From Halobacteriovoraceae bacterium (lineage in GTDB: Bacteria > Bdellovibrionota > Bacteriovoracia > Bacteriovoracales > Bacteriovoracaceae), in assembly GCA_963719505.1 (NCBI GenBank), contig CAVRCF010000002.1, positions 288,001-352,000 of the forward strand: a stretch of DNA of 64,000 bases. Reading direction: 5' to 3'. Position 1 is the first letter of the stretch. Every line of letters begins with the position of its first letter. The notes beneath the pieces are model-generated. The model saw nothing but the letters and a program-made list of their open reading frames with translations, made no database searches and had not been told where the DNA came from. Positions 12,288 through 36,214 of the stretch are shown in pieces. The translations under genes were made by a program, and so were the position numbers.

Positions 12288-14973
12288 ATGATTAGAACCT
12301 TAATTTTTATCCATTTTCTTATAGCTTTTAGCTCCTGTTCGAGTCCTTCGACTGAAGGGGATGATGGACTTATCACCGGTGGTGATACCAATATGGGAAC
12401 TATTTCTAAAATTGATGGGATCTATCTTTTAGAGCCACTTGTAAGTCCTGGTGCAGATCCAACTCCCTTAATTAATATCACAGGTGTCGCCTCTGGCGAT
12501 ACCGTTTCAGTTTTTAGCGATATTACATGTTCTACTTTGGTAACGTCTGAAATGGCGACGGGGGAGACGGTTGAAGTCTCTATTCCGACATTAACGATTG
12601 GAACGCATAGATTCTATGCCAAAAGAACAAAAGAGTCAGAGAGTAGAAGCTCAGACTGTTCCACTTTATTTTTAGACTACACTTTGGAAGGTATTTCAAT
12701 TACCGGCGTAGAGGATGATCTTACAGCTGCCATGAGCAAAACCTTCACATGGGGTTGTGCAGGAACCGCTTCGTGTGAGTATCGATTTGCTGTGAATACC
12801 AGTGAAACTTTTGAGTTCTCAACTGAAAGCTTTGATGCCACTACAACCACGACATACTCAAGTGGCTCCGGAGATTTTTATATTCATCTTCAAGCCCGCG
12901 ACTCAAGTGACAACACTATTGAAAGTGGAGTTTATAGTTATCAATTTGTTTTGGATAATACCTCTCCAGTCGTTACAGCGAACACTATTGCAGCTGGTAC
13001 TTATGGAGTTACAGATATGGTCGAAGTCAGTGTTAATTTTGACGAGAATATTCTCGTGACAGGAAGCCCTAGAATTCAATTAAATTTTGAAACTGAATCT
13101 GCTTCACCGACCTACGCCGTTTATGCAAGCGGTAGCGGATCACAGACACTTGTTTTTCAATACACTGTCGCTTTAGGTGACGAAGATACAAATAATATTT
13201 CAAGCCAAGCTTCAATTGATGTAAACGATGGGACTCTCACTGACGAATTAGGAAATGAACTCAACTATACTTTAGCGACAACAAGCTACAGTGATGCTTT
13301 TGTCGATGGAATCTCTCCAAGCATAATAAGTATAACAGTTCCGGCCAATACTTACTTCTTTGGGAGAAACGCTACCTATTACTGTGAATTACTCAGAAGC
13401 GGTTGTGGTTACTGGTGAACCAAGAATTGAATTAAACTTTGAATCACAGTCGAGTTCTCCCATTTTTGCCACATACGGGGCAGGCAGCGGAACAAGCTCT
13501 TTAACTTTTAATTATATTATCGCCAGTGGTGACTTTGATGCCAACGGAATTGATCTTGTCTCGACCATAGATTTAAACGGTGGCTCACTGGCTGATTCTG
13601 CTGGAAACAATGCGACGACAACCTTAACATCGACAAATTTCTCAAGTGTTTTAGTCGACTCACAAGCTCCCTACATAACCTCTTTTGTCGAGCCGGCCAA
13701 TGGAACTTACGCCAATGGGGGAGAGCTTTTATTTCAAGTCAACTTCTCTGAAGCCGTCACTATTAGTGGAACTCCAAAAATTGGTATTAACCTTGGCGGA
13801 TCAACTGTCTTTGCCACTTATCAATCGGGTTCAGGCAGTACGGGACTCGAGTTTAGCTATGCCATTGTTGCTGGAGACTCAGACAGTGATGGTATTACAC
13901 TCATAAGCACTAGTGTCGACGTAAGCACAGGTTCAATAACGGCAGTGAGCGATTCTAATCCTTCGGCACTAGACTTTCAAGCTTACCTAAACTCCATGAG
14001 TGGAGTCCTTATTGATACAAGTGGTACTATTACCGCTCCCGATCAGGTTATGGGGGTAACAACAGCTCCGACAACTGATAGTAGTGAGCTGAGGGTTTCT
14101 TGGTTAAAAGCAAATGGAAATGGCTTTGATATTATTAATTATAGTGTTCAATATCGTGAACAGGGAACGAGTACGTGGAATAGTTTAAATCCTAATCCAG
14201 TAAATAACTCGGCGACCATTAGTGGGCTCTCCGCTGGTGTGATTTATCAGATCAGAGTCGCAGCAAATAACGGACTTCTCGGTGCATACTCAGCGATATC
14301 AAATGCTGAGATTTTTGATATTCTTCAACTCAATCCTATCGCCTGGTTAAGTGCTACAGATATAACTAATGGTGGGAGTGAACCTTTAAACGATGAAAAA
14401 ATTGATCAGTGGGAAGACATTACGGGGGCTGCAAGTGCGGCAACAGAGACGAACCCAGCCAATCAGCCAGTTTACAAAACAAATGTTCAAAACGGTCTTC
14501 CAGGAGTTCGCTTTGATAATTTAGCGACGGGACTGCAGGGAACGTTTAATCGAAGTATAGGGACGGATTTAACTTTTGTTATCGTCGGTCAGTTCGATAC
14601 AGGCTCAAATGATAAATGTCTTTTTGAGTTCAGTAACGGTGGAAATGCCAGAGGATTTTTTATCGACAGAAGATATGCTAGTAACAACATGTTTTCTCCG
14701 GCTTTAACTCGAGGTGAATTTAAACTTTGGAGAATTCAAGATACAGGAACCACAGCGAAGGTAACCGAAAATGGAGTTACCGAGCTCTTTTCTGGTGGCA
14801 CAAACTTTAATACCGATTTCACTGGGACGGGTAGCTATACTCTTGGAGATGACCAAACAGGTGGAAATAGAATGAATGGCTTTATTGGAGAGTTTTTAAT
14901 TTTCGACAAAGCTCTTTCAGCTTCAGAGATTTCAAAGCTTGAAACCTACCTAAAAAATAAGTGGGGCCTTTAG
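12288..14973 (+). CDS. Large surface lipoprotein/adhesin (Ig-like repeats, FN3, C-terminal LamG/ConA-like domain); frameshift near 13359-13364
   Basis: Lipobox FSSC after MIRTLIFIHFLIA. Three repeats of V.F.E.V.V.G.P.I.L...A.Y..GSG...L.F.Y....GD.D span both ORFs. FN3 (W....NG..I.NY.VQYR...GL..G..Y..RV.A.N), then WL.A.DI...W.D...G.IGE.LIFD.AL...YL..KWG. Confidence 0.8.
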
Positions 14974-16184
14974 TGGTTGAGTTTAAAATACTGACTTGTC
15001 ATCTCTTGTAGTTGGGGTGTCCACTGAGGTGAGAATCCATTCATAAGAGCTTTTTTTCTTAAGTCTACAATAATCGGTAACAGCTTTGTTTGAAGCTTTC
15101 TGTAGTACTTATTTTTAAACTGATTATTATAAGCAAAAAACTCCTCCATAATTTTACTTTCCCAAAGTTCAAAAAAGATAAGAGGAGACACACTGGTTGG
15201 CAGGTTTGAAAACAAGTGTTGGGTGTGTTCTGGAGAGTTGGAGTTGAGGAGGCTAGAAACCCACAGGGTTAGCTCTTCTCCTAGGCTTCGGGACTCTAAG
15301 TCAATTTTTGCTCTTTCAAATCTATCCGTAAGCTCATCTGTTTGGCCAAGCTTGAGAAGTTCATCAAGGATTAATTTGGCTTTAAGTTGTTTATTAATCT
15401 TAGCTTCTTTTATGAGCTTCAGTCTTGTTGTTTTAATTTCATTTTTTCGCATAAAGATCATGAGGTTTTTATAGTCGAGTCTATTTCGATACAGTCCAAC
15501 GATCTTTAAAGTGTCGTTAAAAATATTACTGGGTTTTACAATATAATTTTCTTCATCCAAAGTGTATGAGATGTCATTACTTCCCTTCTTTAGTTTGAGC
15601 TCTTTTTTTACTTTTCTTTCTGAGTCTTTCCACTTTCTATAAAGGACTTTGTTGTTAAAAAGTCTTTTCATCTTTATTGTTTTTGCGATATTTTTAATAC
15701 CAATGATTATAGCTGGTATTAGTATTCCCGGCTGTAAAACCTCATACAAAACGATGAGGACTGGAGAACCAATACTAACGGCCAAAGCTTTCATCGGAAT
15801 TTCTGTGATCTCTATAGTCATAATAATAATAGAGATGGCCAATCCATTTTTCCGGCTAAGAATTTTAGCTTCTTCTTTTATATGGTGAACCATCTCTTTG
15901 ACTTTTTCCCAGGCTGAGCTTTTTTGGTAATGAGAATTTGATTCTATGTCGGCCATAATTTTTTGGGCCAGGGAGTCGATGATAGCATCGTTATACTTTG
16001 GATCGATACTGTCTTCAATTCCTTTGATACTCTCGTATTGTTTATGAAGAATCTCGTTTTGAAGTTTTATTCTCTCAAGGCTCAAGAGGAGATCGTCATC
16101 AATTGGAGCATGAGAATAACTACCAGCAAAACTAGATGAGATAAGCGATAGGAATAAGGCCAACTTGATAAAAATATTTAACAT
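14970..16184 (-). CDS. Hypothetical protein with signal peptide and internal hydrophobic segments
   Basis: 404-aa ORF, signal peptide ending SFA, hydrophobic stretch at about aa 115-165; no motif recognised. Confidence 0.65.
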   Translation of the reverse strand: MLNIFIKLALFLSLISSSFAGSYSHAPIDDDLLLSLERIKLQNEILHKQYESIKGIEDSIDPKYNDAIIDSLAQKIMADIESNSHYQKSSAWEKVKEMVHHIKEEAKILSRKNGLAISIIIMTIEITEIPMKALAVSIGSPVLIVLYEVLQPGILIPAIIIGIKNIAKTIKMKRLFNNKVLYRKWKDSERKVKKELKLKKGSNDISYTLDEENYIVKPSNIFNDTLKIVGLYRNRLDYKNLMIFMRKNEIKTTRLKLIKEAKINKQLKAKLILDELLKLGQTDELTDRFERAKIDLESRSLGEELTLWVSSLLNSNSPEHTQHLFSNLPTSVSPLIFFELWESKIMEEFFAYNNQFKNKYYRKLQTKLLPIIVDLRKKALMNGFSPQWTPQLQEMTSQYFKLNH

Positions 16185-17580: not shown

Positions 17581-18183
17581 ATGAAAAAAGTCCATTTTTT
17601 ACTATTTTTATTATTTGTCGGATGTGGTCATGGCAAATTGGAATTTCAATCTTTTCCTGAGAAGGCTGATGTCTCTTTCGTAGAACGAGACGGGCAGGTT
17701 AAAAAGCTTGGTCAAACACCCTTAGACCTTAAGATGGAAGACGACTTCTTTAGAGACGGTGCGGTAAAGCTTATCTTTTCTAAAGTTGGTTATAGGGATG
17801 AAGTTGTTTATTTAACCAAGCCAGCTCTTCAGTCTAATGTGAAAATTTCCACAAAGATGCAAGAAGCCGGAAGTGCCAAAGAAATTATTTCAAATCAAAG
17901 GTTGGAGGAACTTTCAAATAAAATAGCTGAAGCTCAAAGATTTAGTTTTGGAAAAAACTATAAAAGAGCTGAGACGATTTTAATAAAAGTTATTGATGAC
18001 TTTCCAGACGTCAGTGTTCCTTATGATCTTTTAGCAAATATTTACTATTTATCTAATCAGACTAATAAAGCTTTGTACTTTTATGAAAAGGCAAAGGGGA
18101 TTGCTCCGGGCAACCCTCAAAGAGACTATTTAATTAATAAGCTGAAACGCGTTGATGGAAGCTTAGAGGACACGCAACTATGA
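17581..18183 (+). CDS. Lipoprotein with PEGA-like domain and C-terminal TPR
   Basis: Lipobox FVGC; S.PE.A.V...LG.TP...K.GY (PEGA-like); YKRAE.IL......P.....YDLLANIYY......AL..YEKA....P.N (TPR). Confidence 0.75.
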   Translation: MKKVHFLLFLLFVGCGHGKLEFQSFPEKADVSFVERDGQVKKLGQTPLDLKMEDDFFRDGAVKLIFSKVGYRDEVVYLTKPALQSNVKISTKMQEAGSAKEIISNQRLEELSNKIAEAQRFSFGKNYKRAETILIKVIDDFPDVSVPYDLLANIYYLSNQTNKALYFYEKAKGIAPGNPQRDYLINKLKRVDGSLEDTQL

Positions 18184-18953
18184 AAATCATTTTAGGTTTT
18201 TTCATTATCTCAACCGGCTTTTATATAGCTTTGGATCACTTAAATCAAAGTATTGGTCAGTTTTGGGACGTCATTGCTTTTGCAATGGTTGTCTTTGGAA
18301 CGGTAGCCGTTAGTGTTATGACGATGCCTTCTTTAAAGATTAGACATACCCTTAATATATTTCTCAAAGGTGTTGGAAATAACCACGGTCTCAGAGAAGA
18401 CTGTATTCAAAACTCTTTAAATCTGATTAAAGGTCATGAGCCAAGTGGTGATATTAAGAGAATAGATCAAAAGATTTTAGTCGATGGTCTTGAACTTTTA
18501 CGTTTGGGATTTTCAACTGAAAAAATTCAAGACATCCTCGTCGAAAGAATTGAAAAGTACACCGATGATAGCGTTACAGTGGCTCAGTGGATTAGAGGTT
18601 TATCAAAGTATCCACCAGCTTTTGGTCTTGCAGGAACGGTCATTGGGCTTATCCACCTTATGCAAGGTTTGAGTGAAGGTGCTGACCCAAAAGAGTCTGG
18701 TATAAGAATGGCCGTTGCGCTGGTCGCAACTTTCTATGGAATTGTCATGGCCAATATTTTGATCAACCCAGTTGGGGACAGAATGATGAGTAATATAAAA
18801 GAGGACCAAAACTTAGCAGAAATTTCTTTAAATGCGATTGTTATGATTAGTCAGAGAACAAACTATGTCGAGGCAATGGAGCAGATGAACAACCATGTAC
18901 CAAACCAGCATAAGAAGCTTAGCTTCAATTATGGTGCACTTGAGGCTTCATAG
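18180..18953 (+). CDS. motA: MotA-like stator subunit (MotA/TolQ/ExbB channel, MotA subtype)
   Basis: Four TMs; AF.MV..GT, DGL.L...G, PAFGLAGTVIGLI, G.RMAVALVATFYG...AN....P. Confidence 0.85.
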   Translation: MKIILGFFIISTGFYIALDHLNQSIGQFWDVIAFAMVVFGTVAVSVMTMPSLKIRHTLNIFLKGVGNNHGLREDCIQNSLNLIKGHEPSGDIKRIDQKILVDGLELLRLGFSTEKIQDILVERIEKYTDDSVTVAQWIRGLSKYPPAFGLAGTVIGLIHLMQGLSEGADPKESGIRMAVALVATFYGIVMANILINPVGDRMMSNIKEDQNLAEISLNAIVMISQRTNYVEAMEQMNNHVPNQHKKLSFNYGALEAS

Positions 18954-18955
18954 AT

Positions 18956-19642
18956 ATGAGAAAAGCTAAGATAAAAAAAATTCAAGCGCACGAAACTGAT
19001 ACTGAGGGATCCTGGGCCATAAGCTATGGGGATATGATTACTCTTCTTCTTAGTTTCTTTGTTATCTTTTTCTCTTTTGACTTCAAAAAAGAAAAGGAAG
19101 ATATCCTTGAAGAAAGTGCGATAAAGAATATTGCTGTGATGGATACATTTAAGGATAAAGAGACTGGTATTCATGAGAAACCATCAGAAACTATTGAAGA
19201 GCTTAACGAAATTACGACGATAGTAAAAAAAGAAAAAGATGGAAAGTTAGTTGTCTTTTTTAAAGGGGCAAACTTTTTTGACAGTGGTGACACTTCAGTT
19301 AATGAGTTTGGGCAAGTCTTGCTGACAAAATTTATTAAAAAATATACTCCTTACGCAGGTAAGTTTAGGGTGAAAATTCAAGCCTTCACTGATAGTCAGC
19401 CAGTTTCAAATCCAAGTCATCGCTATAAAGACAATGTCGAATTAAGTGCCTTGAGATCCATTTCAGTTATGAGATACCTTCAAAACAATGGAGTGCCTCT
19501 AAACCGAGTTGAGATTGGCGGAATGGGAATAATGTCAAAGAGAGCTTTAGCTGTGCTTGGACTTGAATCAAATAATGTTGAAGAAGTACGAAAAATGTCT
19601 AGAACAATAGCTTTAATATTGTTTCGCGAGGATGCATCATGA
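18956..19642 (+). CDS. motB: MotB-like stator subunit with OmpA-like peptidoglycan-binding domain
   Basis: WAISYGDMITLLLSFF retains the catalytic Asp; FDSG, FTD..P...N.ELSALR...V..YL...G. Confidence 0.88.
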   Translation: MRKAKIKKIQAHETDTEGSWAISYGDMITLLLSFFVIFFSFDFKKEKEDILEESAIKNIAVMDTFKDKETGIHEKPSETIEELNEITTIVKKEKDGKLVVFFKGANFFDSGDTSVNEFGQVLLTKFIKKYTPYAGKFRVKIQAFTDSQPVSNPSHRYKDNVELSALRSISVMRYLQNNGVPLNRVEIGGMGIMSKRALAVLGLESNNVEEVRKMSRTIALILFREDAS

Positions 19643-21345
19643 TGAATAAATTTACAACCTTTGCCTTTTTATTACTGGCCACTTTTGGCATGAGTAGTGC
19701 GAAAGCGGATAATGCACGGGTTATTGAAATCCAAGAGAAAATTAAAAGTGATATTTCTAGTTTTCTAGAAAAATTCTCTCCTAACACAAAGTATTCTGTG
19801 CAGGTTAAGGTTAAGCCGTTGAGGCGTCGATTTGATAAGTCTTCGCAAAGTGATAGTCTCCCTTTTATGGAATACCAAGATGATCTGATTTTAGATGAAT
19901 GGGACGACCCTAATACTAATATCTATTCACTTTACAGTCGTATTGCAGAAGCTCGTGTGTCAATCTTAATTGAAGACAAAGTTAAAATAGATAATAGAAG
20001 AAAGTTTAAAGAGGCGATCTTACAAGATGTGAATCTAATTCCAGGTAGAGATACTGTTGAGATTGAAGCCATTTCAACTCCTGTTTTAGAGAGCACTTTT
20101 AATTGGAAAGACCAAACTGAAATACTTCTCCTGGGTGTGATGCTTATTATTGCTGTGGTTTTAGGCGTAGGACTAAATTCCCTTTCAAAGAAGATCGTTC
20201 CCCAACAAGTAAGAAATGCTAGTGATAGTAAAGAATCAGCTCCATCATTTTCTGGAGCTGCTCCCGCTATGGCGTCAGCTCCTCAAAGTTCCGGGCCTAG
20301 TAAAAACAATTCTTTTGGTGAATTGAAAGGTGATCTCAATATTCAAGATCCCTCTAAAATAAATGAAGTCGTCGGAAAAAAGATTAACAAGTTATTAGAG
20401 TCAGAGGTTTTTCCTACGCTTGGAGATATGGTTATTCTTGAAGAGCTTTTAAAGAATGATCCTTCAAGTTTCAGTTACCTCGCTTTTGAATTCCCCCTAG
20501 AAGTTCAAAAGAGCATCTATCAGTTAGGACGAGGGGAGCAATGGTTTAAAGGTTTCTCTGAAGTAGGTTTCCCAAGTAAGGTGGTTTTAATTTCTCTAGA
20601 TAAAATGTTAAGAAATCGAACTGTTCATCAAAGTGAAAACTTTGAAAGCTTGCTTATTCACTCTTGGAGATTAGCAGCAAATTTAACACCATTTATTAAG
20701 ACGATGTCTAAGGAAGATGCATTTTCAATTCTTTATTTTCTTCCTAAAGATATATCAATACCTGTTGCTAGAGATTGCTTTCCTGGTTCGTGGGGAAGTA
20801 TCTTTGAAGAAAGAGCAACAACAACTTTAAAAGATGGACAAAAAATTCAAAAACTTCTAACTGAAGCTCTTAAACTTCAGCCTTACTTAAACTACGATTC
20901 ACTTCAGGTTTTTAAAAATAGAAAAGATCTTCTGTCCTATCTCGATACTGTTGAGCCACAAGATGAAAGAGACATCTATGCGGTCATGGGCGAACAAAAT
21001 GATCTTTCCTCTATTCGACCACCATTTTATACTTTTTTCGAATTAGAAAAAGAAGTCAGACAAAAAGTGTACTCAAAATTCTCTATGCAGGAATGGGCCG
21101 TGGCTTGTTTTAATATTGGGAGGCACGATAAAGATAAACTTACAGATCTGATGGATGAAAAAGAAAAATATCTTTTTAGTCATATTCTGAAAAATATTGA
21201 TCAAAATTCTCATCTTGCAGAAAACAAGGTTGAGATTAGGCATTCGATCGCCCATTTTGTTCATGAGAATCATTCACATAAAATGGTTGTGCCCGTTAAA
21301 GAAGTTGAAGGGATAGTCCAAGATGAACAAAATAATGTTGCCTAG
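19639..21345 (+). CDS. Single-TM protein: FliF ring-motif-like periplasmic domain plus FliG-like cytoplasmic domains (putative fused rotor)
   Basis: Signal peptide. aa ~101-146 RIAEARVSILI...AIL....L.PGRDTVEI resembles FliF I..LSVAV.V...RGD.V.V. TM at aa ~162-179. aa ~352-375 resembles FliG-M and aa ~431-542 resembles FliG-C. Confidence 0.6.
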   Translation: MMNKFTTFAFLLLATFGMSSAKADNARVIEIQEKIKSDISSFLEKFSPNTKYSVQVKVKPLRRRFDKSSQSDSLPFMEYQDDLILDEWDDPNTNIYSLYSRIAEARVSILIEDKVKIDNRRKFKEAILQDVNLIPGRDTVEIEAISTPVLESTFNWKDQTEILLLGVMLIIAVVLGVGLNSLSKKIVPQQVRNASDSKESAPSFSGAAPAMASAPQSSGPSKNNSFGELKGDLNIQDPSKINEVVGKKINKLLESEVFPTLGDMVILEELLKNDPSSFSYLAFEFPLEVQKSIYQLGRGEQWFKGFSEVGFPSKVVLISLDKMLRNRTVHQSENFESLLIHSWRLAANLTPFIKTMSKEDAFSILYFLPKDISIPVARDCFPGSWGSIFEERATTTLKDGQKIQKLLTEALKLQPYLNYDSLQVFKNRKDLLSYLDTVEPQDERDIYAVMGEQNDLSSIRPPFYTFFELEKEVRQKVYSKFSMQEWAVACFNIGRHDKDKLTDLMDEKEKYLFSHILKNIDQNSHLAENKVEIRHSIAHFVHENHSHKMVVPVKEVEGIVQDEQNNVA

Positions 21346-21886
21346 TAAAAAGATCTTTCTTTTAGCCTTAAGTTTTTTAAGCTTAAGTGCGTTTGGTCAA
21401 AAGTTGTCACTTGGTGCTGGGGCTTATTCTTTAAGTGCAAAAGTTGGAGATAACGAAACATCCGTTTCAAATATAGGGGCTTATAGAATACAGTTCCATT
21501 CTAAAATCCAAGAGCAATTTGAATTTCTCCTTGGGTATAATATTCTTATAGAAAATATTTATAGTGGAGATAAAGCTTTCGGTCCATTTGTGGGCTTTAG
21601 CTACTATCCTTTTGGATCAGAGACTTCCTCTCATTCTTCTTTGTCTAATTTATCTATTTCGAGCATTAAACTTTTAAACCCTTATCTCTATACTGGTTTT
21701 AACCAGCGACAGTATCAATCGGTGAAGGCGACTTATTCTGGCTTCTCTTTTGGTGGTGGCGCAGAGATAGGTTTTAACAAAGAGGTGGCGTTCTTTGCAG
21801 ATATGCAGTACGCGATGCTTGATGGGCCAAACGAGGGTGAGGCGACTGAGTTTATGGGGATCGCTGGAATTATGTATCACTACTAG
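21323..21886 (+). CDS. Small outer-membrane beta-barrel protein
   Basis: Signal peptide, alternating aromatic/Gly strands, PYLYTG, C-terminal aromatic (GIMYHY). Confidence 0.72.
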   Translation: MNKIMLPSKKIFLLALSFLSLSAFGQKLSLGAGAYSLSAKVGDNETSVSNIGAYRIQFHSKIQEQFEFLLGYNILIENIYSGDKAFGPFVGFSYYPFGSETSSHSSLSNLSISSIKLLNPYLYTGFNQRQYQSVKATYSGFSFGGGAEIGFNKEVAFFADMQYAMLDGPNEGEATEFMGIAGIMYHY

Positions 21887-21969
21887 TCTTTTAGAAGAGG
21901 CAATTGCCACGATAAAATGGCAATAAAAGAGATGGTTTAGAGGTCTAAACTCTCTAAATTGTTGATAAC

Positions 21970-21997
21970 TTAAGAGAAACTTAATTCTAGCCGAAAG
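21970..21997 (+). promoter_or_regulatory. sigma28 (FliA)-like promoter for the NHL adhesin gene
   Basis: TTAAG-N15-GCCGAAAG, 8 nt before ATG 22006. Confidence 0.55.
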
Positions 21998-22005
21998 GTC
22001 TTATA

Positions 22006-25000
22006 ATGAAAAATATGAAAATAATATCGTTACTCTTTTTTACTCTTTTCCTAACCGCTTCTTGTCAAGAAGGTGGGGATAAAGGGTTCTCAGGTCTTGA
22101 GGATTCTGTTGAAACAGTTGGTGACAGCACACCTACTGAGGTCGCAGTAGAAATTCGTTCGGTTTCACCAACGGTGAATCCCATCGTTCTAGTGGCCAAC
22201 AACACTCAAACTTTTGCCGTTCAAGTCAACAGTGGAGCGGGAGAGGTGACTTATACTTTTAAATTAGATGGATCTCTTTTACAAAACTCTAATTCACCTT
22301 TCTATAATTTAGAAGCTTCTGGACTTACATCTGGTAGCCATACTCTTGAAGTGACAGCAACAAACTCTCTTTCTAGTGATTCTCATACTTTTAACTTGAG
22401 AAAAAATACGGCTCCAGTCATAAGTTTAGATTCAAATACTTCACAAACAATCAGTTGTGTTTCGGATTCATTTCAATTGGATATTACAGCAGCTGATGCT
22501 GATGGGGATAGTTTAAGTTATGACTTTTATCTCAATGGCTCTGCCGGAAGTTCTTATTTAACGACAAGTACGGGGTTGAGTTCGGCGACTTTAGTCTTTA
22601 CTCCAAATTGTACTTTATCTGGCACAAGTAATGTCACTATTCGAGTGACAGACTCCCATGGAGAGTATGACGAATACACTATGGCCGTGACGGTTAGTAA
22701 TCCAAATATCGCGACCGTTGATTCTTATTCTCCAAGTGCAGACCCCGTTCAAGTTTTAAGTTCGGCCAGTCAAACTTTTAGTATCAGTGCTTCAGGAAAA
22801 GCGCCTCTCACTTACCAGTGGGAGCTTGATGGAGTTATCATAGGAACTGCTTTGGGTGCCATTCATACCCTTGCCTCTGGAGATATTACGGCAGGTGCTC
22901 ACACTTTAAAAGTAACGGTTAGTGATTCGGATAGTAGTGACTCCCATACTTTTAATATCGTTAAAAACGTGGCTCCAGTAATTTCTGGAGAGAGCCCCTC
23001 AGAGTCGTCAATAAAACAAAATTACGAAATTATAAAAACATTTTCGGTTGATGCAACTGATGCCAATAGCGATGCTCTAACCTTTACTTGGACCCTCAAT
23101 GGTGGTTCGAGCTCGACAATTGCAACCAGTAGATCAGGCAATACATCGTCCGCGATTTTTACCCCCACGGAATTAATTATCGGGAACCATACTTTAGCCG
23201 TAACAGTTAGTGATGGACTTGAAACAGACACTCATTCTTGGACTATTGCTGTCAATAGGTTTAGTACAGCCTGTAATGAACTTTCTCAAGGTGAGGTTTG
23301 TACAGTGGTTGGGCCAGTTGGTTTTAATAGTGGGGGAAGCACCGAAACAGCAAAAGCTCTAAGAGGTATTCCTCGATACATGACGAAAGACTCATTTGAT
23401 AATATGTATATTGCCGATACAGATAATCATGTCATTTGGTATTACAACTTCTCAATTGTGGACAGAACTGTTCATGGTATTGATGTGCCTGCTTATACAG
23501 CTAAAATTATCCTAGGAAATGGTGTTGCCGGACAAACGGTCGATGGAAGAAAAAATTCTGACTTTAAACTCAATAGCCCAAGAGACCTCGTTTATGATTC
23601 TGAGACTGATTCTCTCTTTGTTGCAGATTATTCAAATAACAGAGTTGTTCAACTTCTTTCGGATGGATCAGCAAGACAAGCCTTGTGTTACGGTGGAACG
23701 GCAAATAACGAAGCTTATAATGAAGATGGACTGGCGCTCACAAGATCTTGTTATGCTCCCATTGGTTTGGCATTAGATACGACTAATAGAAAAATTTATG
23801 TTGCCGTCTATGGCCACCATAATATTAAACAATTCGATATTAGTGATTCAGATTATACAAACTGGACCGGTGGTGTTTTGATTGGTCGAAAAAATGGCAA
23901 TGGCTCTGTTGCAGCTGGATACGATGATAATGGAGTTGCCTTTGGTTATACGGCTGGTGGTGCTCGTACTCAAAATCCTTGGGACCTCGAGTTGAATGCG
24001 GATGGATCGCTCTTATTTTTCACTGAATATGCTGGAGATAGATTAAAGGTTGCCAACCTCTCAAACTCAACAAAAACCCTCATCAATGGGACTCTCAGTA
24101 TTAGTGCTGGGCATATTAAAAAAGTAGTTGGAAATGGAGCCGGTGTTACCGAGGGAAATTATACTTCAGCGAAGATAGATCAGCCTATGGGGATAGCGCT
24201 GTTTGAAGATGCAGGAACTTTAAAAGGTATTTTTGTTGTCTCTTATAATAGACATGTTGTGAATTTCATCAACAACACGGCTTCAACTATCACCATCGGA
24301 GATACCGATGTCGCAGTAGAGCAACTTGGCTGGGTTTTTGGGGATAGAGGTGCCTATTATAATGGAGATGGAAATACTGGACGTCTCACAAGTATTTGGT
24401 CACCTCGCGGACTCGAAGTTATTGGAGACACATTGTATGTTTCAACTCTTTCAACGGCAATGGTGAGATCATTGGATATAAGTGTCAACGATGGAGATGT
24501 GGGGACAAAAGTTCACGCGGATGTTATTGAAGACTTTGTTAGTTCAAACAATCCAAATTCAGTTAGGCTTTTTAATCCAACTTATCTAGCTTCTCACCCA
24601 ACAAATAAAGAAATTTTTTGGGGAGAGGAAGGCAGTGGAAAGATTAGAAAATTTAACACTCAAACCGGCACTGTTAATGAAGTATTAGGACTTGGGCGCT
24701 CTCATCAAGATCAAGATATGCAAACAGCTGATAATATTTATAATCAAGGAATCAAAGGTCTCTCATTTCACAATGGACAACTCCTTTATGTCGATAGAAA
24801 TAATCCAACGGGAGTGGACCGTGCTTGTCGAGTGAGAGCTTTTAATCAATCTGGAAGCACTTCGACTTTCTTCGGTACTCCGATAGGGAATGGTTTAATT
24901 GGTATTGTTGCCGGAGACTGGACTAAAGGGTGTAATAATTGGGAAAATCTTGTTGGTGCCCAAGCGACAAGTGTTGCTATTAAATCACCCGAATCCATCG

Positions 25001-25650
25001 TTTCAGATGGAACAAATTTATATATTTCTAACCCTTATTCACATTGTATATTAAAAGTAGACTCTTCAGGTGTGATCTCTGAATTTTCAGGAGACTGTGA
25101 TTCTGCTGGTGATGTTCCTGGAGCAATAGGATCTACCTCAGTTCGCTACAGTTATCCTTCAGGTCTGTTTATGGATCCTGAATATCCAGGAAACATGTTT
25201 GTCGTAGATAGATCAAATATTTTTAACAGCAGTTATCTTAAATATATAAATCAATCAGGCTCTGACATAACAATCGCGGGAACTACCGTGCCAGCAGGTG
25301 ACGTTGCAACGATTTTTACGACCTCTGGTTTTACATCTACAGTGGCCGCTTACGGAAACTGGATTTGCTATAATTCAACCTATTTTCTAGGATATAACGA
25401 CGCCCGCGCTAACGATAACGTCAATTGTTTTGATAGAACGAATAATTTAGGCGTTGTGGCTTTCAGAATTGGAAATAGCGACAGCGATACAATTAAAGGT
25501 GGAAGGCAGTTGTCGGACGAATACGAAGGGGCCAACTCCTTATCAGTGAGACTTGCTAAACCGCTGGGGCTAGCTTTTGACGCCGACGGAAACCTTTACA
25601 TAACTGAAGTTATTGGAAACACCATCAAGATGGTTAAGCGCTGGTACTAA
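22006..25650 (+). CDS. Giant surface lipoprotein: tandem Ig/PKD-like domains followed by NHL-repeat beta-propellers
   Basis: Lipobox LTASC. Duplicated Ig pairs (..W/F.LDG....HTL.VT....SDSHTFN..KN.APVIS..). NHL motifs such as YIADTDNH, LFVADYSNNRV and P.GLAFDADGNLYITE. Confidence 0.85.
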   Translation: MKNMKIISLLFFTLFLTASCQEGGDKGFSGLEDSVETVGDSTPTEVAVEIRSVSPTVNPIVLVANNTQTFAVQVNSGAGEVTYTFKLDGSLLQNSNSPFYNLEASGLTSGSHTLEVTATNSLSSDSHTFNLRKNTAPVISLDSNTSQTISCVSDSFQLDITAADADGDSLSYDFYLNGSAGSSYLTTSTGLSSATLVFTPNCTLSGTSNVTIRVTDSHGEYDEYTMAVTVSNPNIATVDSYSPSADPVQVLSSASQTFSISASGKAPLTYQWELDGVIIGTALGAIHTLASGDITAGAHTLKVTVSDSDSSDSHTFNIVKNVAPVISGESPSESSIKQNYEIIKTFSVDATDANSDALTFTWTLNGGSSSTIATSRSGNTSSAIFTPTELIIGNHTLAVTVSDGLETDTHSWTIAVNRFSTACNELSQGEVCTVVGPVGFNSGGSTETAKALRGIPRYMTKDSFDNMYIADTDNHVIWYYNFSIVDRTVHGIDVPAYTAKIILGNGVAGQTVDGRKNSDFKLNSPRDLVYDSETDSLFVADYSNNRVVQLLSDGSARQALCYGGTANNEAYNEDGLALTRSCYAPIGLALDTTNRKIYVAVYGHHNIKQFDISDSDYTNWTGGVLIGRKNGNGSVAAGYDDNGVAFGYTAGGARTQNPWDLELNADGSLLFFTEYAGDRLKVANLSNSTKTLINGTLSISAGHIKKVVGNGAGVTEGNYTSAKIDQPMGIALFEDAGTLKGIFVVSYNRHVVNFINNTASTITIGDTDVAVEQLGWVFGDRGAYYNGDGNTGRLTSIWSPRGLEVIGDTLYVSTLSTAMVRSLDISVNDGDVGTKVHADVIEDFVSSNNPNSVRLFNPTYLASHPTNKEIFWGEEGSGKIRKFNTQTGTVNEVLGLGRSHQDQDMQTADNIYNQGIKGLSFHNGQLLYVDRNNPTGVDRACRVRAFNQSGSTSTFFGTPIGNGLIGIVAGDWTKGCNNWENLVGAQATSVAIKSPESIVSDGTNLYISNPYSHCILKVDSSGVISEFSGDCDSAGDVPGAIGSTSVRYSYPSGLFMDPEYPGNMFVVDRSNIFNSSYLKYINQSGSDITIAGTTVPAGDVATIFTTSGFTSTVAAYGNWICYNSTYFLGYNDARANDNVNCFDRTNNLGVVAFRIGNSDSDTIKGGRQLSDEYEGANSLSVRLAKPLGLAFDADGNLYITEVIGNTIKMVKRWY

Positions 25651-25877: not shown

Positions 25878-26074
25878 ATCTCTATATAAGCCTTTAAATT
25901 GATTGTTCTGCATGAATTTATCGAATCTCACTAAGTTCTTCAAGTGAATTCTAATAACTCTGGCTCTTCTATAAGTCTCCTTCTTTCATTGCGTTGATCT
26001 GGCTTTTAACACAGAGAACACTTTAAACAATGAGCAGTTTCTTGTATAGTAATCTCAAGCGAAAAGGTGACCGT

Positions 26075-27910
26075 ATGATTGATGAAAAGACAGTAAGTTT
26101 TGTAAAAGAAGTTCTCGAAAATATGCCAGCGGATTGGGTCAATCTGACAACGCATCGATTAGACATCTATAATGAAAAATTGGCCAAAGTGGAATTTCTC
26201 ACTCAGTTTGAAAATTTACTGGGAAGCCAACAAGATGAGCTTAAAGCTCAGTTAGAAGAATTACCAACGGCTTTCGATTATATCAGATTAGGGCATCCAC
26301 TTTCTTGTATTCTTGAATGGGTGATTGCTAAATCTCAAAAAGCGAATATTGAAAGTGTAATCTCCTTCTCTTCTCAAAGTATGCCCATACTGGCCATTTT
26401 AAGAAAAAATTCTTTGGAAAATACAAAAACTCGTATCCTCCATCAAGGTCATCTACCCCATCATTTTGACCATGAGCTTTTACAGAAGGTTTACGATTAT
26501 AAGTTTGAACTGTCGAAAGTAGAGGGGCCACTAACTGAATTTGATGGTTCGACTATTTTGATAAAGAGCTTCGATGATTTAGATCAAACAAATATCCATG
26601 GAGATGTCGATTTCGTCGTGGCCCTTAATGATCAAGGTAGCATAACCATCGTTAACCGAGACAAAAATAAAGAGTATATCTCTGAAATTCAGCACGTAAG
26701 AAGAAGAGAGTCTATTGCGATGACTCCTCATGACTGCTTGTCCTTTCTTGAAAAGATTATAGGACAAAGTACTATGGTTAAAAGTCTTAACCCAGATAGG
26801 GAATCTTTAGTTAAAACCATTCAAAGTATTACGAATACATCCACCATGCCCTCTATTGGGTCATGTGGTTTATCAGTTCAGTATGCAATTATGATGGGTC
26901 TTATTCACCACTGCCTAGACACTCATCCAGGTAAAGCGATTAAGTTTTTAGTCCCACCAAACTGCTACGGAGGAACGAATGATCAAGCCAGACGAGTGGC
27001 CGCGGTTGTTCCGAATGTTGAGATCGTTGATCTTCCGGTTGATAGTGGCAATGACATGGTTCAAAGTCTTGATAGAGTATTAGGAGAAGTTGCCAAAGAA
27101 GATGCTCTGGCTTTTATTATTGCTGAGATTCCAACGAATCCCAGAGTTGAAGTTCCAGATCTTATTCAGCTAAAAGAGGTTTTAACACTCACTCGTAAGA
27201 CTTCGACCGGGGCACAAGCCACTGCTCCCGTTTTTATTTTGGACCAAACCTTTTGTCCTAATGTTAAGTTTTTAGGAGAAGGGGATTTTCTCTCAAGCGT
27301 TGCCACTATTTCTTATGTTAGTGGATCAAAATTCCCAAGTGGTGGCCTTTGTACAGCGGGGTATAGTGTCGCAAACAAAAAAGCTGAGCATCTAGTGAAT
27401 TATGTCGAGAGACATCTTAAGCTTTGTGATAACGTTGCGACAGATTTTCAGATCGATGTCTTATCAAAACAGATGCCATCGATGAATAAAAGAATAGAAG
27501 ACGCTTACAAAAACACCAGAGAGTTTGTGGATTATATTCAATCAACTCTTCCTACGGCCAAGATTAATTTTGTTTCACGGCAGTTAGCTCAAGATGGTTT
27601 TACACCATCAGTTTTCTCTCTCGATCTTCCAACTATTGGTGATTCTCATGCGGAGCGAGAATTACATAAAAGAGATTTAAATTTAAAGCTTATTAAATTA
27701 ATGATTAAGGAGATACCAACTGAGAGTAAATTCTGTGTGAGTTATGGTCAACTTCAAGGATGCTACTGGACTATACCTGCAACATCTACTCAGGGAACAA
27801 CAAAAGAAGGAGATAAGGACTATATTGTCAGGGTCTCTCTTTCTCCAAAGCTAGATGTTAATAGGCACAAGGAAGTATTTTCACTTTTTTGTCGTCAATA
27901 TATTAATTAA
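26075..27910 (+). CDS. PLP-dependent Cys/Met-metabolism enzyme (cystathionine gamma-synthase/beta-lyase fold) with long N-terminal extension
   Basis: CYGGT, AEIPTNP, LDQTF, SGSKFPSGG (Schiff-base Lys), VSYG, VRVS. SD AAGG before ATG 26075. Confidence 0.78.
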   Translation: MIDEKTVSFVKEVLENMPADWVNLTTHRLDIYNEKLAKVEFLTQFENLLGSQQDELKAQLEELPTAFDYIRLGHPLSCILEWVIAKSQKANIESVISFSSQSMPILAILRKNSLENTKTRILHQGHLPHHFDHELLQKVYDYKFELSKVEGPLTEFDGSTILIKSFDDLDQTNIHGDVDFVVALNDQGSITIVNRDKNKEYISEIQHVRRRESIAMTPHDCLSFLEKIIGQSTMVKSLNPDRESLVKTIQSITNTSTMPSIGSCGLSVQYAIMMGLIHHCLDTHPGKAIKFLVPPNCYGGTNDQARRVAAVVPNVEIVDLPVDSGNDMVQSLDRVLGEVAKEDALAFIIAEIPTNPRVEVPDLIQLKEVLTLTRKTSTGAQATAPVFILDQTFCPNVKFLGEGDFLSSVATISYVSGSKFPSGGLCTAGYSVANKKAEHLVNYVERHLKLCDNVATDFQIDVLSKQMPSMNKRIEDAYKNTREFVDYIQSTLPTAKINFVSRQLAQDGFTPSVFSLDLPTIGDSHAERELHKRDLNLKLIKLMIKEIPTESKFCVSYGQLQGCYWTIPATSTQGTTKEGDKDYIVRVSLSPKLDVNRHKEVFSLFCRQYIN

Positions 27911-31017: not shown

Positions 31018-32238
31018 ATGAACAGCAAACTAGTGATAGTTCTGTTTCTTATTAGCTTTTTGAGTATGGCTCAAGAAGACTGTGAGATTAGTACCATCAA
31101 AAATTTTTACCATAGGGTCAAAGCCAAAGGGCCTCTACTGACCCAAGCTTATAAAAGAAAAGAGCAGATCTCTTCTGCGGTAGATTTGGCAAAACAGAGA
31201 CCAAATCCAGAAATGGATATTCAGTATCTCCGAGGTGAACAATTTGGCCAAAACATAAATACTTACTCCCTTACGGCAAAGCATGTTATTGAACTTGGAT
31301 CTAAAAGAGACAAAAGAATCGAGAAGGCTAAAAGTTATAAAAAATTGAAAGATTCTGAAATTGACCTTTCTCTTTTTGAGTCAAACCTTAAAGCCACAAT
31401 TGGATATCAAAGAGTCGCTCAGCTAAATCAGACCATTTATACTGTCAAAGAGGCAATTCAAACCTTTGATAATATAATAAAAAAATTAACATCTCGAAAA
31501 CGACTGAATCCCGAAGAAACTGTCTCTCTGTCGACTTTGAAACTTGCATCTAATCATTACAGTGCTCAACTTAACGATTTAGAAAATGAGAGAACTATTC
31601 TGCTTGGTAAGATTTCTTTTTTATCTCACTGCAAAGGACTTGATGTTAATTATGAATATATTAATTATAACAAGATTCAATTTCAGAAAAATAGTTTAAA
31701 AAATGTTGGATTAAAAAAACTTGAGGATCTCAAGGTTGATGTTGAAAGGGGCGAACTCGCTATTCAAGATTCAATTGGATATTCGAATCTTTCCATCGGC
31801 CCATCTTTTCAATACCAAGGACAAGATGGAGATGCATCCCTTGCAGCTGGTGTTGCATTGTCTTTCTCTCTCCCTCTCTTTCAAACAAACGATGGTGGGA
31901 AACTCAGTGCTTTGAAAGGGCTTGCTTCTCAGAAAACAGAAACTAGAAATAGAAAAGAGTTGCTCGAAATAGAAAGAGGGAACCTCATAGAGAAATTCAA
32001 TAGGTCCTTAGGAATTCTTTCGAAAATGCCAAACTTAGCTAGTTTAGAAAGAGATCATAAGAAGGTCGAAAAACTTTTTGCCAGAGGCGTTGTTTCAATA
32101 TCAATGACAATTGAATCCCATAGACAGCAGATTGAGTTTTTAAAATCAAGGTTTGAAACTGAGAATGATGTTTTGGATACTTATGGAAAAATAATATTAA
32201 TAGATGGAAACATATCCGCTTTTGAGCAGTTGTTGTAA
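31018..32238 (+). CDS. czcC: TolC-family outer-membrane factor (CzcC-like)
   Basis: AKQRPNP, IELGSKR..RI, SLPLF..N.G; operon context. Confidence 0.8.
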   Translation: MNSKLVIVLFLISFLSMAQEDCEISTIKNFYHRVKAKGPLLTQAYKRKEQISSAVDLAKQRPNPEMDIQYLRGEQFGQNINTYSLTAKHVIELGSKRDKRIEKAKSYKKLKDSEIDLSLFESNLKATIGYQRVAQLNQTIYTVKEAIQTFDNIIKKLTSRKRLNPEETVSLSTLKLASNHYSAQLNDLENERTILLGKISFLSHCKGLDVNYEYINYNKIQFQKNSLKNVGLKKLEDLKVDVERGELAIQDSIGYSNLSIGPSFQYQGQDGDASLAAGVALSFSLPLFQTNDGGKLSALKGLASQKTETRNRKELLEIERGNLIEKFNRSLGILSKMPNLASLERDHKKVEKLFARGVVSISMTIESHRQQIEFLKSRFETENDVLDTYGKIILIDGNISAFEQLL

Positions 32239-32249
32239 AAGGAATAAAA

Positions 32250-32738
32250 ATGAAACTAATCTGTAGCTTTTTAGTTTGTCTGTTTTATTCAAACTTTATT
32301 TATGCAAAAGAAAATAAGCATATGAATTCGAATAATATTGAAAAACACGATGACCACGGAAAACACGATGATCATGGCGGTGGAAAGTCCATCGGAAAGG
32401 GAAAAGCAATTGAGGCTGTTGATGAAGTTCTTGGATTTCGACTCTCAAAAGAAGCAATTGCAACTCTTGATATCAAACTAGAGGCAATTTCAGCTAAAGA
32501 TCTCTCTATTCATAAAGAGACGCTTGTCACATTTAAATCAGTTAAAGGGATTTATCGGTTTAGGGATGGATATTTCAAGTTCTTGCAAGTAGCCCTTGTT
32601 AAGAAAACTGGAGGGCGATTTCTGATAAGTATTCCAGATTTCGAATTTGGAGATCAAATTGTTACAAGTGGTGTTGATCTTTTAAGAATCTCAGACGTCT
32701 ATTCAACAGATGAAACTGAATACGGACACTCTCATTAG
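32250..32738 (+). CDS. Truncated CzcB-like periplasmic adaptor, His-rich
   Basis: Signal peptide, (KHDDHG)x2, C-terminal GDQIVTSGV.LL like MFP C-termini, ends GHSH; lies between czcC and czcA. Confidence 0.65.
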   Translation: MKLICSFLVCLFYSNFIYAKENKHMNSNNIEKHDDHGKHDDHGGGKSIGKGKAIEAVDEVLGFRLSKEAIATLDIKLEAISAKDLSIHKETLVTFKSVKGIYRFRDGYFKFLQVALVKKTGGRFLISIPDFEFGDQIVTSGVDLLRISDVYSTDETEYGHSH

Positions 32739-32747
32739 GATTTTAAA

Positions 32748-35700: not shown

Positions 35701-35885
35701 ATATATTTGGTTTTCTTCCCATGATGTTTTCTTCAGGACTTGGTGCTGAGGTTCAAAAGCCTCTGGCAACGGTAGTTGTTGGTGGTATCTTTACCGCAAC
35801 AATTCTGACTTTAATTGTTATACCTAGTTTATATCGATTATTTATAAAATATATGCAACCTGATCTTGAGGAGATTAAAGAATGA
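32748..35885 (+). CDS. czcA: CzcA/CusA heavy-metal RND permease
   Basis: IDAVPDITNTQVQI, GPISTGLGEI, NLMSLGALDFGIIVDGAVIVIEN, RLRPVLMTA, GAEVQKPLATVV. Confidence 0.95.
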   Translation: MINKVIEFSVKSRMFVFIMTLLLIVLGYQSFQTLSIDAVPDITNTQVQINTPVKGLVPEEIERMVTFPIEYSMNGIPGVLTIRSISRFGISQVTIIFKEDIAILTARQLVSEKLQNLELPRGVTPEMGPISTGLGEIFHYSISAKKVEVDPDKRLVQLMELRSLQDWFIKPRLLTVKGVTEVNTIGGYEKQFFIQPNIKKMTNLGVHFDDIENAIEQTNLNVGGGYIQQTGEQLLIRGVGLLKNFSDIENVVVKRLSDYKVIKIKDIAKVKFDKQIRTGAATVNGEESIIGTAFMLLGENSRTVSNDVNEKLKEIGKDLPSWVELNVLYNRSDMVDATLGTVQHNLFMGAGLVILFLLLLVGNLRAAIITSIIIPISLLITFILMKWQNVSGNLMSLGALDFGIIVDGAVIVIENCVHKLQKEGKRAGRELTRHEVKKYVTEAAIEIRSAAGFGELIVIIVFVPLFALTGVEGKMFGPMAQTFIMALCSALILSFTLVPALAATFLSGKTRDKKPYFMNLAQKVFSPVLAKALAFKRVVLGIGVASIIGGVVLFCQMGSEFIPQLDEGDFALQFIRPANVSTENSVKLQKLSEKIIREFPQVKNVFARTGAAEVATDPMGVNISDSYVMLFPKKNWPVDERIKTKKDLIKAIKERIELHVPAQVLMVSQPVELRFNELLEGTRADVSVKIFGDDLDQIIAYSKQVANIVAQIDGAGEVESESKGKSPLLQYTPKIEELAQLGVTARPVLDAISTAIGGKEIGHVYDGVRSFPIVTRLSEEERKDVFTISKLPVGISNGYTVPIEQVADISFVETFTAVARENSQRRVAVLINPETRDIESFVNKAKEKVESTIKFPEGYYIEWGGSFKNLQSAKERLFILVPLAMLVIIGMLYAAFKNFAQVLLIFACAPMALIGGVVSLNLFDMPFSISAGVGFIALSGISILNGVVLVTYFNRLIGDGKSPDDVVKEGAMSRLRPVLMTALTDIFGFLPMMFSSGLGAEVQKPLATVVVGGIFTATILTLIVIPSLYRLFIKYMQPDLEEIKE

Positions 35886-36211: not shown

Positions 36212-36214
36212 AAA

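Follow-up and report, generated by a model that had tools for sequence, protein, structure and literature searches.

A conserved envelope gene cluster of a Halobacteriovoraceae bacterium with a flagellar-type stator and a FliF/FliG-like candidate rotor protein

A stretch of 64,000 nucleotides from a Halobacteriovoraceae bacterium (assembly GCA_963719505.1, contig CAVRCF010000002.1, positions 288,001 to 352,000 of the forward strand; hereafter, the window) contains, at its positions 17581-25650, six genes on the + strand that are considered here as a candidate rotor–stator module of the cell envelope. They encode a TPR lipoprotein, a MotA-like and a MotB-like protein, a protein of 568 amino acids (aa) with FliF- and FliG-like folds, a small outer-membrane beta-barrel and a large lipoprotein with Ig-like and NHL domains. 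In the list of open reading frames (ORFs), the coordinates, strands and overlaps are those given in an earlier reading of the same DNA (the initial annotation), which had described five coupled genes followed by a sixth in the same direction. The first five genes are coupled through stop/start overlaps or a 2-base gap, and the junctions along the six genes measure -4, +2, -4, -23, and +119 bases. The genes, and the parts of the 568-aa protein, are as follows (TM, transmembrane):

17581..18183, + strand: PEGA-TPR lipoprotein, 200 aa; lipobox ...FVGC with Cys15
18180..18953, + strand: MotA-like stator A subunit, 257 aa; PF01618
18956..19642, + strand: MotB-like stator B subunit, 228 aa; plug, TM helix with Asp26, OmpA-like peptidoglycan-binding domain
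19639..21345, + strand: 568-aa FliF/FliG-like protein, candidate rotor subunit (AlphaFold2 model, fold searches, hhalign)
19714..20079, + strand: periplasmic alpha-beta-beta-alpha-beta domain of the 568-aa protein, residues ~26-147; FliF RBM3-like
19816-19944, + strand: insert in the RBM3-like domain, residues 60-102, with L74, P75, D86, and W88
20107..20199, + strand: single TM helix of the 568-aa protein, residues 157-187, followed by a disordered linker, ~188-235 (hydropathy, AlphaFold2)
20344..21285, + strand: cytoplasmic all-helical FliG-like region of the 568-aa protein, residues ~236-549 (structure alignment)
21016-21285, + strand: match to the FliG torque-generating domain, residues 460-549 (structure alignment)
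21323..21886, + strand: small outer-membrane beta-barrel with signal peptide, 187 aa (AlphaFold2, Foldseek)
22006..25650, + strand: PKD/Ig-like lipoprotein with NHL-repeat propeller, 1214 aa; candidate cargo or surface partner (Pfam)

The lipoboxes of the two lipoproteins, FVGC and TASC, are read straight from the sequences. In agreement with the initial annotation, which had found no rod, hook, flagellin, export, or chemotaxis genes in the window, Pfam searches of 56 window ORFs (11 + 45) gave no member of these families, and neither these searches nor the ORF clustering of 21 loci described below revealed a FliM or FliN family in the cluster or the window.

The second and third genes probably encode the two subunits of a peptidoglycan-anchored stator of the flagellar type, as judged by family membership and conserved channel residues. 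The MotA-like protein belongs to MotA_ExbB (PF01618, 1.3e-19 in Pfam), and all ten of its matches among PDB sequences are flagellar MotA or PomA, with 8ucs_C at the top (5e-19); it falls under every NCBIfam equivalog cut-off (at best 89 bits, where 237 are needed). The motifs KYPPAFGLxGTV of TM3 and N192...P197 of TM4 are invariant among 20 sequences of the family and include the channel prolines, which we take to be the equivalents of E. coli P173 and P222. MotB_plug (2.1e-10) and OmpA (2.9e-10) were found by Pfam in the MotB-like protein, and its PDB sequence matches are MotB and MotS. The channel residue Asp26, within WAISYGDM(I/V)TLLL, shows no variation across the 21 orthologues, which bears out the intact channel aspartate of the initial annotation. 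In the flagellar motor, ion flow through the MotA5B2 complex leads to rotation of MotA around MotB, fixed to peptidoglycan, and MotA pushes on FliG_C.

The relation of this stator to its paralogues was addressed by two phylogenetic trees. Ten genes of the MotA/ExbB superfamily are present in the own genome; by their neighbors, seven belong to ExbBD/TolQR-like sets, one to a canonical MotAB pair (253 and 268 aa), one to the cluster, and one to an odd pair. The ExbB/TolQ-type paralogues lie away from the cluster. The first tree comprised 60 rows, that is, 21 cluster MotAs and 39 paralogues from the own genome and five carrier genomes (for the latter, the best 30 of 55 matches). It placed the cluster MotAs inside the MotA-type group, apart from ExbB/TolQ, with a support of 93 in the Shimodaira–Hasegawa-like approximate likelihood ratio test (SH-aLRT). 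For the second tree (46 rows), the MotAs of two related module types, II and III, which are described below, were added, seven ExbB/TolQ rows served as the outgroup, and the remaining ExbB/TolQ-type rows and two long-branch rows were left out. In this tree, the MotAs group by module type, one clade for each (SH-aLRT 99), and these clades lie outside both the ExbB/TolQ and the flagellar-type rows. The phylogeny against flagellar stators of the same genome, proposed with the initial annotation, thus returned a separate clade: the cluster MotAs sit beside, not within, the flagellar-type stators of the same genomes (SH-aLRT 99), the label “flagellar-type” being based on size, clade, and, for the copy of the own genome, the MotB neighbor, and not on experiment. 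An ExbBD/TolQR/AglRQS-type motor was considered and rejected, as the cluster MotA lies off the ExbB/TolQ branch (SH-aLRT 93 to 99) and the MotB has an OmpA domain. Zorya was rejected as well; PADLOC gave generic ZorB matches for the MotB only, no ZorA, ZorC, or ZorD, and nothing for the MotA or the neighboring genes.

The fold evidence on the 568-aa protein comes from one AlphaFold2 model with a predicted local distance difference test score (pLDDT) of 78 overall and about 90 in the cytoplasmic part. The model consists of a signal-peptide helix, a periplasmic domain (residues 26-147), a TM helix, a disordered linker, and an all-helical region (residues 238-548). Hydropathy indicates a signal-peptide-like N-terminus and one TM segment at residues 157-187 (the helix spans 156-184 in the model), in keeping with the single-TM protein claimed earlier; residues 184-235 are modeled with pLDDT below 50. 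FliG and FliF occupy the top rows of the Foldseek search, with weak E-values. In an alignment of the whole model, run independently of Foldseek against 48,161 representative solved chains, Z >= 8 was reached only by seven, four of FliG and three of FliF.

The C-terminus of the protein aligns with FliG_C bound to MotAB (8ucs_H; Z 12.3, root-mean-square deviation (rmsd) 2.8, 85 of 88 residues) and with FliG_C of 1qc7_B (Z 11.9, rmsd 2.8, 88 aligned). Over residues ~330-549, the model tracks the middle and C-terminal domains of FliG (1lkv, Z 12.2; 3hjl, Z ~12), and in the alignment to 8vib_G residues 273-551 of the model correspond to FliG 5-322 (Z 10.5). The best match of the helical part other than FliG is the cytoplasmic domain of MgtE, at Z 5.6. 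The periplasmic domain is matched to RBM3 of FliF, with Z 10.6 for 8z5v_A (rmsd 3.8, 98 aligned), 10.2 for 7cg7_A, and 10.1 for 6scn_A; the superpositions have rmsd 3.0-3.8 with 97-99 aligned residues, and other ring-building modules (EscJ, PrgK, SpoIIIAG/AF) and generic alpha/beta folds remain at Z <= 7.8. The RBM3 domains of FliF build the MS-ring, which has about 33-34 subunits. With one TM segment, a signal peptide, and a single periplasmic domain, the protein has neither the two TM helices of FliF nor RBM1 and RBM2, and its FliG-like region is fused to a membrane anchor, unlike FliG, a soluble protein that binds FliM and the C-terminus of FliF. Strands one and two of the RBM3-like domain are separated by a poorly modeled insert (pLDDT 53-70) that holds the invariant or nearly invariant L74, P75, D86, and W88 within the motif LPF...DEWDDP; a periplasmic partner might make contact here. 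The insert is placed where FliF carries the beta-collar.

At the level of sequence, the FliG and FliF signals are very weak. From 48 close homologues collected, 38 were aligned, and the alignment has 21 invariant columns. Pfam gave no match for the window's protein, to YscJ_FliF or any other family, and phmmer against PDB sequences returned nothing. The family profile has one match among PDB sequences, FliG_C of 1qc7 (E 0.48), and 6 of the 38 family members match Pfam FliG_C weakly (E 2e-4 to 1e-2). Comparison of the family with FliF by hhalign gave a modest similarity (P 5.6e-4, 32 columns). The link to FliG runs through the FliG-like proteins of the type II modules: the family aligns with them end to end (Prob 96.1, E 3.2e-9, 458 columns), and they align with canonical FliG (Prob 97.5, E 7.6e-12). 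The comparison of the family with type III proteins was not significant (P 0.11). The nearest language-model clusters of the family carry FliG_C, FliG_M, FliG_N, and YscJ_FliF_C. Because of the type II bridge, the weak FliG_C matches, and these language-model neighbors, the protein is treated here as a very divergent, natural combination in which FliG is joined to the C-terminal half of FliF within a single chain. The FliG/FliF-like fold proposed in the initial annotation is therefore supported by structure (RBM3 at Z ~10, FliG_C at Z ~12) and by profile homology through intermediates.

The remaining genes of the cluster encode two lipoproteins and an outer-membrane barrel. For the 200-aa protein, its own TPR matches are weak, but hidden Markov models (HMMs) find TPR_2 in every one of 21 orthologues and PEGA in six of them. 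At least 90% of these 21 sequences retain the lipobox Cys15, and the family consensus reads SxPxGAxV...GxTPL...KxGY. The 187-aa protein is modeled as an all-beta barrel (AlphaFold2, pLDDT 90) and has 23 Foldseek matches at E <= 1e-3, all of them outer-membrane barrels; the best are Ail, NspA, OmpX, the OmpA TM domain, and OmpW (E 5e-6 to 6e-5). Pfam OMP_b-brl stays under its cut-off, at 17.6 bits. Model and matches together agree with the outer-membrane barrel that had been assigned to the fifth gene. The downstream, co-directional 1214-aa protein, earlier named an Ig/NHL lipoprotein, indeed contains NHL (9.5e-12), PKD (1.5e-8), Big_9, and Cadherin_5 in Pfam, and its gene is single copy in the own genome.

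Related modules were found when 121 genomes of the phylum were scanned with Pfam FliG_C, which revealed long ORFs of 554-594 aa and 754-811 aa. At least 15 such ORFs are among the matches listed, and all 12 that were retrieved sit directly after a TPR lipoprotein gene and before a MotA-MotB pair. In type II, the order is TPR, FliG-like protein (554-594 aa), MotA, MotB. In type III, a ~385-aa protein is followed by TPR, the FliG-like protein (754-802 aa), a ~165-aa cyclic-nucleotide-binding protein, MotA, and MotB; the cyclic-nucleotide-binding protein suggests second-messenger control. The FliG-like proteins of both types share the layout of the 568-aa protein, with a signal peptide, a periplasmic domain (longer in type III), one TM helix, and a cytoplasmic FliG part, and the TPR lipoproteins heading these modules come from the same HMM family as that of the window. 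They differ from the window's type in that the FliG-like gene precedes motAB, FliG_M and FliG_C exceed the Pfam cut-offs, and neither a barrel nor an NHL gene is present. As types II and III keep the TPR lipoprotein, the membrane FliF/FliG-like protein, and MotAB, and the barrel and NHL gene are specific to the window's type, these three components are the common denominator of the three types.

Several further loci touch on these proteins. At one locus (L135), a type III module adjoins a type-I-like set composed of a barrel, a 578-aa protein without an HMM match, and a MotB. In the own genome, fliF-fliG-fliH lie on another contig, and the canonical motAB is also elsewhere. On the same contig as the cluster, ~275 kb upstream, there is a second MotAB-like pair of 240 and 198 aa (L127: 4782-7207, 8056-12997), preceded by two small secreted proteins with weak barrel and TPR HMM matches. 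Near it are encoded a 1101-aa TIG/Ig protein and a 512-aa protein with a signal peptide, a periplasmic domain, one TM segment, and a helical region. The latter has a suggestive similarity to the 568-aa family (P 0.0044), and the locus may be a fourth, more divergent module of the same class. On contig C1 of the own genome, two stand-alone FliG_C proteins of 140-141 aa were found (58 and 43 bits; L063:1426-1848, + strand, and L064:1498-1923, - strand); many genomes of the phylum contain comparable ORFs of ~140-170 aa, and such proteins could be regulators of a stator or rotor.

Conservation of the cluster was analyzed in 13-kb stretches from 20 carriers, picked to span families and E-values and thus not a random sample, which together with the window give 21 loci. 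The core order TPR-MotA-MotB-568aa-barrel is identical in 21 of 21 loci in ORF clustering, and in most cases the neighboring genes overlap by 1 or 4 bases. None of the six frames is broken, and the lengths are conserved, at identities to the window's proteins of 20-79% (the lowest being ~20-25%). The NHL gene lies inside 20 of the 21 stretches, but its placement varies: it is found either downstream (co-directional or convergent) or upstream (co-directional or divergent), which makes four arrangements in all. A linkage that outlasts such rearrangement argues for a functional tie. The five-gene arrangement, recurring in 20 of 20 other loci, is far from chance, and the gene order on which the initial annotation depended is thus conserved. 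No further gene family is common to at least four of the 21 loci, and no flagellar genes stand beside the cluster in any of them. A search for related loci with the single 568-aa protein gave one locus, from an uncultured Bacteriovoracaceae bacterium (69% identity), and the family counts 242 representative clusters at E <= 1e-3 among 1.84 billion representatives.

These data bear directly on the proposal that the cluster is a decaying, functionless remnant of a second flagellar system. The very weak FliG/FliF sequence signals and the patchy spread would fit such a remnant. The proposal is nevertheless contradicted by conservation, that is, by the six intact frames with conserved lengths in 21 loci of 20-79% identity, the invariance of MotB Asp26, of the MotA prolines, and of 21 columns in the 568-aa family, and the 242 representative clusters in public data; it is considered extremely improbable. 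A whole flagellum was likewise rejected as the encoded system, since export gate, rod, hook, filament, and switch genes are neither in the window nor common to the 21 loci.

The cluster is therefore read as an ion-driven (proton or sodium) rotor–stator module that has the core of the flagellar motor and is separate from the flagellum, with a presumed contact between rotor and stator; we assign this reading a probability of roughly 0.6. In the proposed mechanism, the signal peptide of the 568-aa protein would be removed, and the RBM3-like domain would reside in the periplasm, connected by one helix through the membrane to a FliG-like N/M/C array in the cytoplasm. The RBM3-like domains may assemble the protein into a membrane ring. 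The cytoplasmic face of the cluster's MotA would then push the FliG_C-like domain, so that the ring would turn relative to the cell wall. Movement in the periplasm might be handed to the PEGA-TPR lipoprotein, common to the three module types, and in the window's type it might also reach the barrel, of the 8-strand type, and the PKD/NHL lipoprotein, for which movement, retention, or display at the surface is conceivable. The interpretation given with the initial annotation, a self-contained ion-driven machine spanning both membranes that acts on a surface adhesin, is as a whole partly supported. A moved surface adhesin as the output is rather unlikely, and a role in gliding or prey attachment is speculation.

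A number of observations weigh against this rotor–stator reading. The Z of ~12 obtained for the helical fold is in a range for which a warning is given that it can arise from common helical arrangements. The window's 568-aa protein has no Pfam FliG match and no NCBIfam match either, and no significant similarity (P 0.08-0.18) emerged when its family was compared directly by hhalign with canonical FliG from the phylum (30 proteins). The charges of the FliG torque helix, which we take to be K264, R281, D288, D289, and R297 in E. coli, are mostly missing: in alignments of low confidence, only the R281 position is kept, as Lys508 (37 of 38 sequences), and the acidic pair is not. On the side of the stator, the MotA charges that contact the rotor in flagella are R90 and E98 in E. 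coli, according to the accessible part of a 2025 survey of MotAB (PMC12505986). Among the 21 cluster MotAs, no consensus is reached at the 60% level over the equivalent stretch; A-R-K-E...L-E is retained there by five flagellar-type MotAs, and the cluster family conserves dG.EL..LGf (residues 102-111) instead. If the contact exists, the interface between MotA and the 568-aa protein is altered on both sides. The prediction of a complex of three MotA with residues 455-552 of the 568-aa protein scored 0.02 against a mark of 0.32; it had no controls and counts neither way. The patchy spread also belongs here. A full or partial match to the 568-aa family profile was found in 57 of 401 genomes of the phylum (the own genome and two weak partials included) and, within the own family, in 16 of 100, and the module is therefore dispensable for the life style. 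Finally, canonical FliG is present in 54 of the 54 carrier genomes tested.

The last observation is one argument for another explanation, in which the cluster is an accessory of the ordinary flagellum, made of extra stators and a periplasmic scaffold, with the FliG-like protein as a docking site, reservoir, or clutch. Canonical FliG was detected in 38 of 61 genomes of an even sample of the phylum, compared with all of the carriers. However, the carrier families are flagellated throughout, and because of this the co-occurrence has no discriminating power and cannot test independence from the flagellum. An accessory role could also be supported by the position of the cluster MotA in the MotA-type clade, nearest the flagellar-type stators, and by the precedent of Vibrio and Campylobacter, in which stator scaffolds are built by TPR proteins and small outer-membrane proteins or lipoproteins. 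In addition, the available text of a 2026 review reports that three motAB pairs serve one flagellum in B. bacteriovorus (PMC13689555). On the other hand, the cluster never adjoins flagellar genes in the 21 loci, and its MotA forms a distinct clade co-inherited with the 568-aa gene. The combination of an RBM3-like ring domain, an anchor, and a complete FliG-like array resembles a rotor and not a scaffold, and three paralogous module types, some within one genome region (L135), are hard to place on one flagellum. A flagellar accessory is, on balance, improbable.

The poorly conserved interface charges and the composition of the cluster lead to a third explanation, namely an energizer of the Ton/Tol kind without a turning ring. 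In this case, the stator would act on a single or a few 568-aa molecules, which would power an outer-membrane process by changing their conformation or by moving laterally; the PKD/NHL lipoprotein, for example, could be exported to the surface, anchored, or released via the small barrel or next to it. Other members of the MotA/ExbB superfamily power outer-membrane processes through a single-pass partner, as described in the portion of the MotAB survey at hand (PMC12505986), two lipoproteins and an outer-membrane barrel are encoded in the cluster, and the canonical charges of the torque interface are not conserved. Yet any contact here would be made through a cytoplasmic FliG-like domain and not through a TM helix of the TonB/TolA type. 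The periplasmic part is an RBM3-like globule of 120 residues, unable alone to reach the outer membrane, and RBM3 is a ring-building fold with its best matches in FliF rings. Furthermore, types II and III keep TPR, the FliG-like protein, and MotAB, although they lack the barrel and the NHL gene. The energizer is distinctly unlikely, and the reading as a rotor–stator module separate from the flagellum is retained below.

Among known systems, the flagellar rotor–stator core is the closest, and the cluster is classed as a flagellar stator–rotor pair within a non-flagellar envelope module. The likeness lies in a stator of the MotA-type branch with plug, channel Asp, and OmpA-like domain, and in the RBM3-like and FliG middle and C-terminal folds of the 568-aa protein, with FliG homology through intermediates. 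The differences are that FliF-like and FliG-like parts are in one chain, that this chain has one TM segment and a signal peptide in place of the two TM helices of FliF and no RBM1/RBM2, that genes for FliM/FliN, export gate, rod, hook, and filament are missing from the cluster, that the torque-interface charges are mostly not conserved, and that an outer-membrane barrel, a PEGA-TPR lipoprotein, and an NHL lipoprotein are added. To our knowledge, FliG and FliF are known only as parts of flagella, and non-flagellar MotAB relatives (Ton, Tol, Agl, Gld, Zorya) all act on partners unrelated to these two.

The closest known molecule to the 568-aa protein is the laboratory FliF-FliG fusion. In Salmonella and Vibrio, such fusions still assemble rings, as far as the accessible sections of the reports tell (PMC6079021, PMC10941966, PMC11481574), and the fused architecture is therefore compatible with ring formation. 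The laboratory fusions described in these sections are engineered or mutant, full-length, and placed inside a real flagellum, whereas the 568-aa protein is natural, contains only the C-terminal half of FliF, is very divergent, and has its own stator away from flagellar genes. The Agl-Glt gliding machinery of Myxococcus, which has homologues in Bdellovibrio, is similar in that it spans the envelope, combines an ion-driven motor of the MotA/TolQ superfamily with TPR proteins, barrels or lipoproteins, and an adhesin, and occurs in the same predator group; the Agl motors are TolQR-like and move along tracks, whereas the cluster has a MotA-type protein, a peptidoglycan-binding MotB, and a FliF/FliG-like partner (PMC13104615 and PMC13689555, in the parts available). 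GldLM of type IX, ExbBD-TonB, TolQR-TolA, and ZorAB share an ion-driven motor of the 5:2 type and a non-flagellar output, going by the available text of two of these articles (PMC12505986, PMC13104615), but none of them pairs with a FliG or FliF homologue.

A search of the open full-text literature, with subscription journals and bioRxiv supplements outside its reach, found no description of a natural non-flagellar FliF/FliG-MotAB system, in agreement with the initial annotation, whose author knew of no described system with this exact composition. Such a module is not mentioned in the accessible parts of the 2025 MotAB survey (PMC12505986), the 2026 review of gliding (PMC13104615), and the 2026 review of Bdellovibrio (PMC13689555). 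If the proposed reading is correct, the cluster would offer a minimal, genetically compact rotor–stator system for structural and biophysical study, would bear on the origin of the flagellar motor, that is, on whether a stand-alone torque core existed or can exist, and would indicate that predatory bacteria have an envelope function not yet explored. The gliding motor, the adhesins, and the prey-entry forces of these bacteria are named as open problems in the available portion of the gliding review (PMC13104615).

The reading can be extended to autonomous rotary engines of the envelope, each with a FliF/FliG-like ring of ~30 subunits and its own MotAB, without an axle or secretion gate, which would move outer-membrane lipoproteins along or around the surface; this extension is tentative and, in our view, somewhat unlikely. 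The module could belong to a widespread, unrecognized class of motors. This is conceivable because there are at least three paralogous types in Bdellovibrionota and language-model neighbors in other phyla; neighbors of ~480-620 aa with FliG_C and YscJ_FliF_C were found in Pseudomonadota, Elusimicrobiota, Cloacimonadota, and Myxococcota and serve as a lead only. With regard to origin, the module could have been derived from the flagellar motor by reduction, or it could be a surviving relative of a rotor–stator core that predated type III export.

The genes around the cluster have housekeeping, metabolic, and efflux functions and are not common to the related loci. A scan for promoters and terminators remained within the expectation from shuffled sequence (19 versus 22.3 and 8 versus 5.7). 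Upstream, past an rRNA methyltransferase gene, the window at 13360-16184 encodes a secreted fn3/LamG-like protein of 537 aa (+ strand) and a 404-aa protein (- strand) for which Pfam gave no family match; the two genes are not conserved beside the cluster in other genomes. Downstream, at 26030-27910, lies the gene of a 626-aa protein in which a pyridoxal-phosphate-dependent enzyme domain of Cys/Met metabolism is confined to residues ~250-514, and the N-terminal 250 residues have no family match in Pfam. Further downstream, two efflux sets of the resistance-nodulation-division type are found at 31018-37090 and 46033-50962 and encode AcrB-family pumps (1045 and 1040 aa, respectively). The first set is followed by a cation-efflux gene, and the second includes a MarR regulator and an outer-membrane factor.

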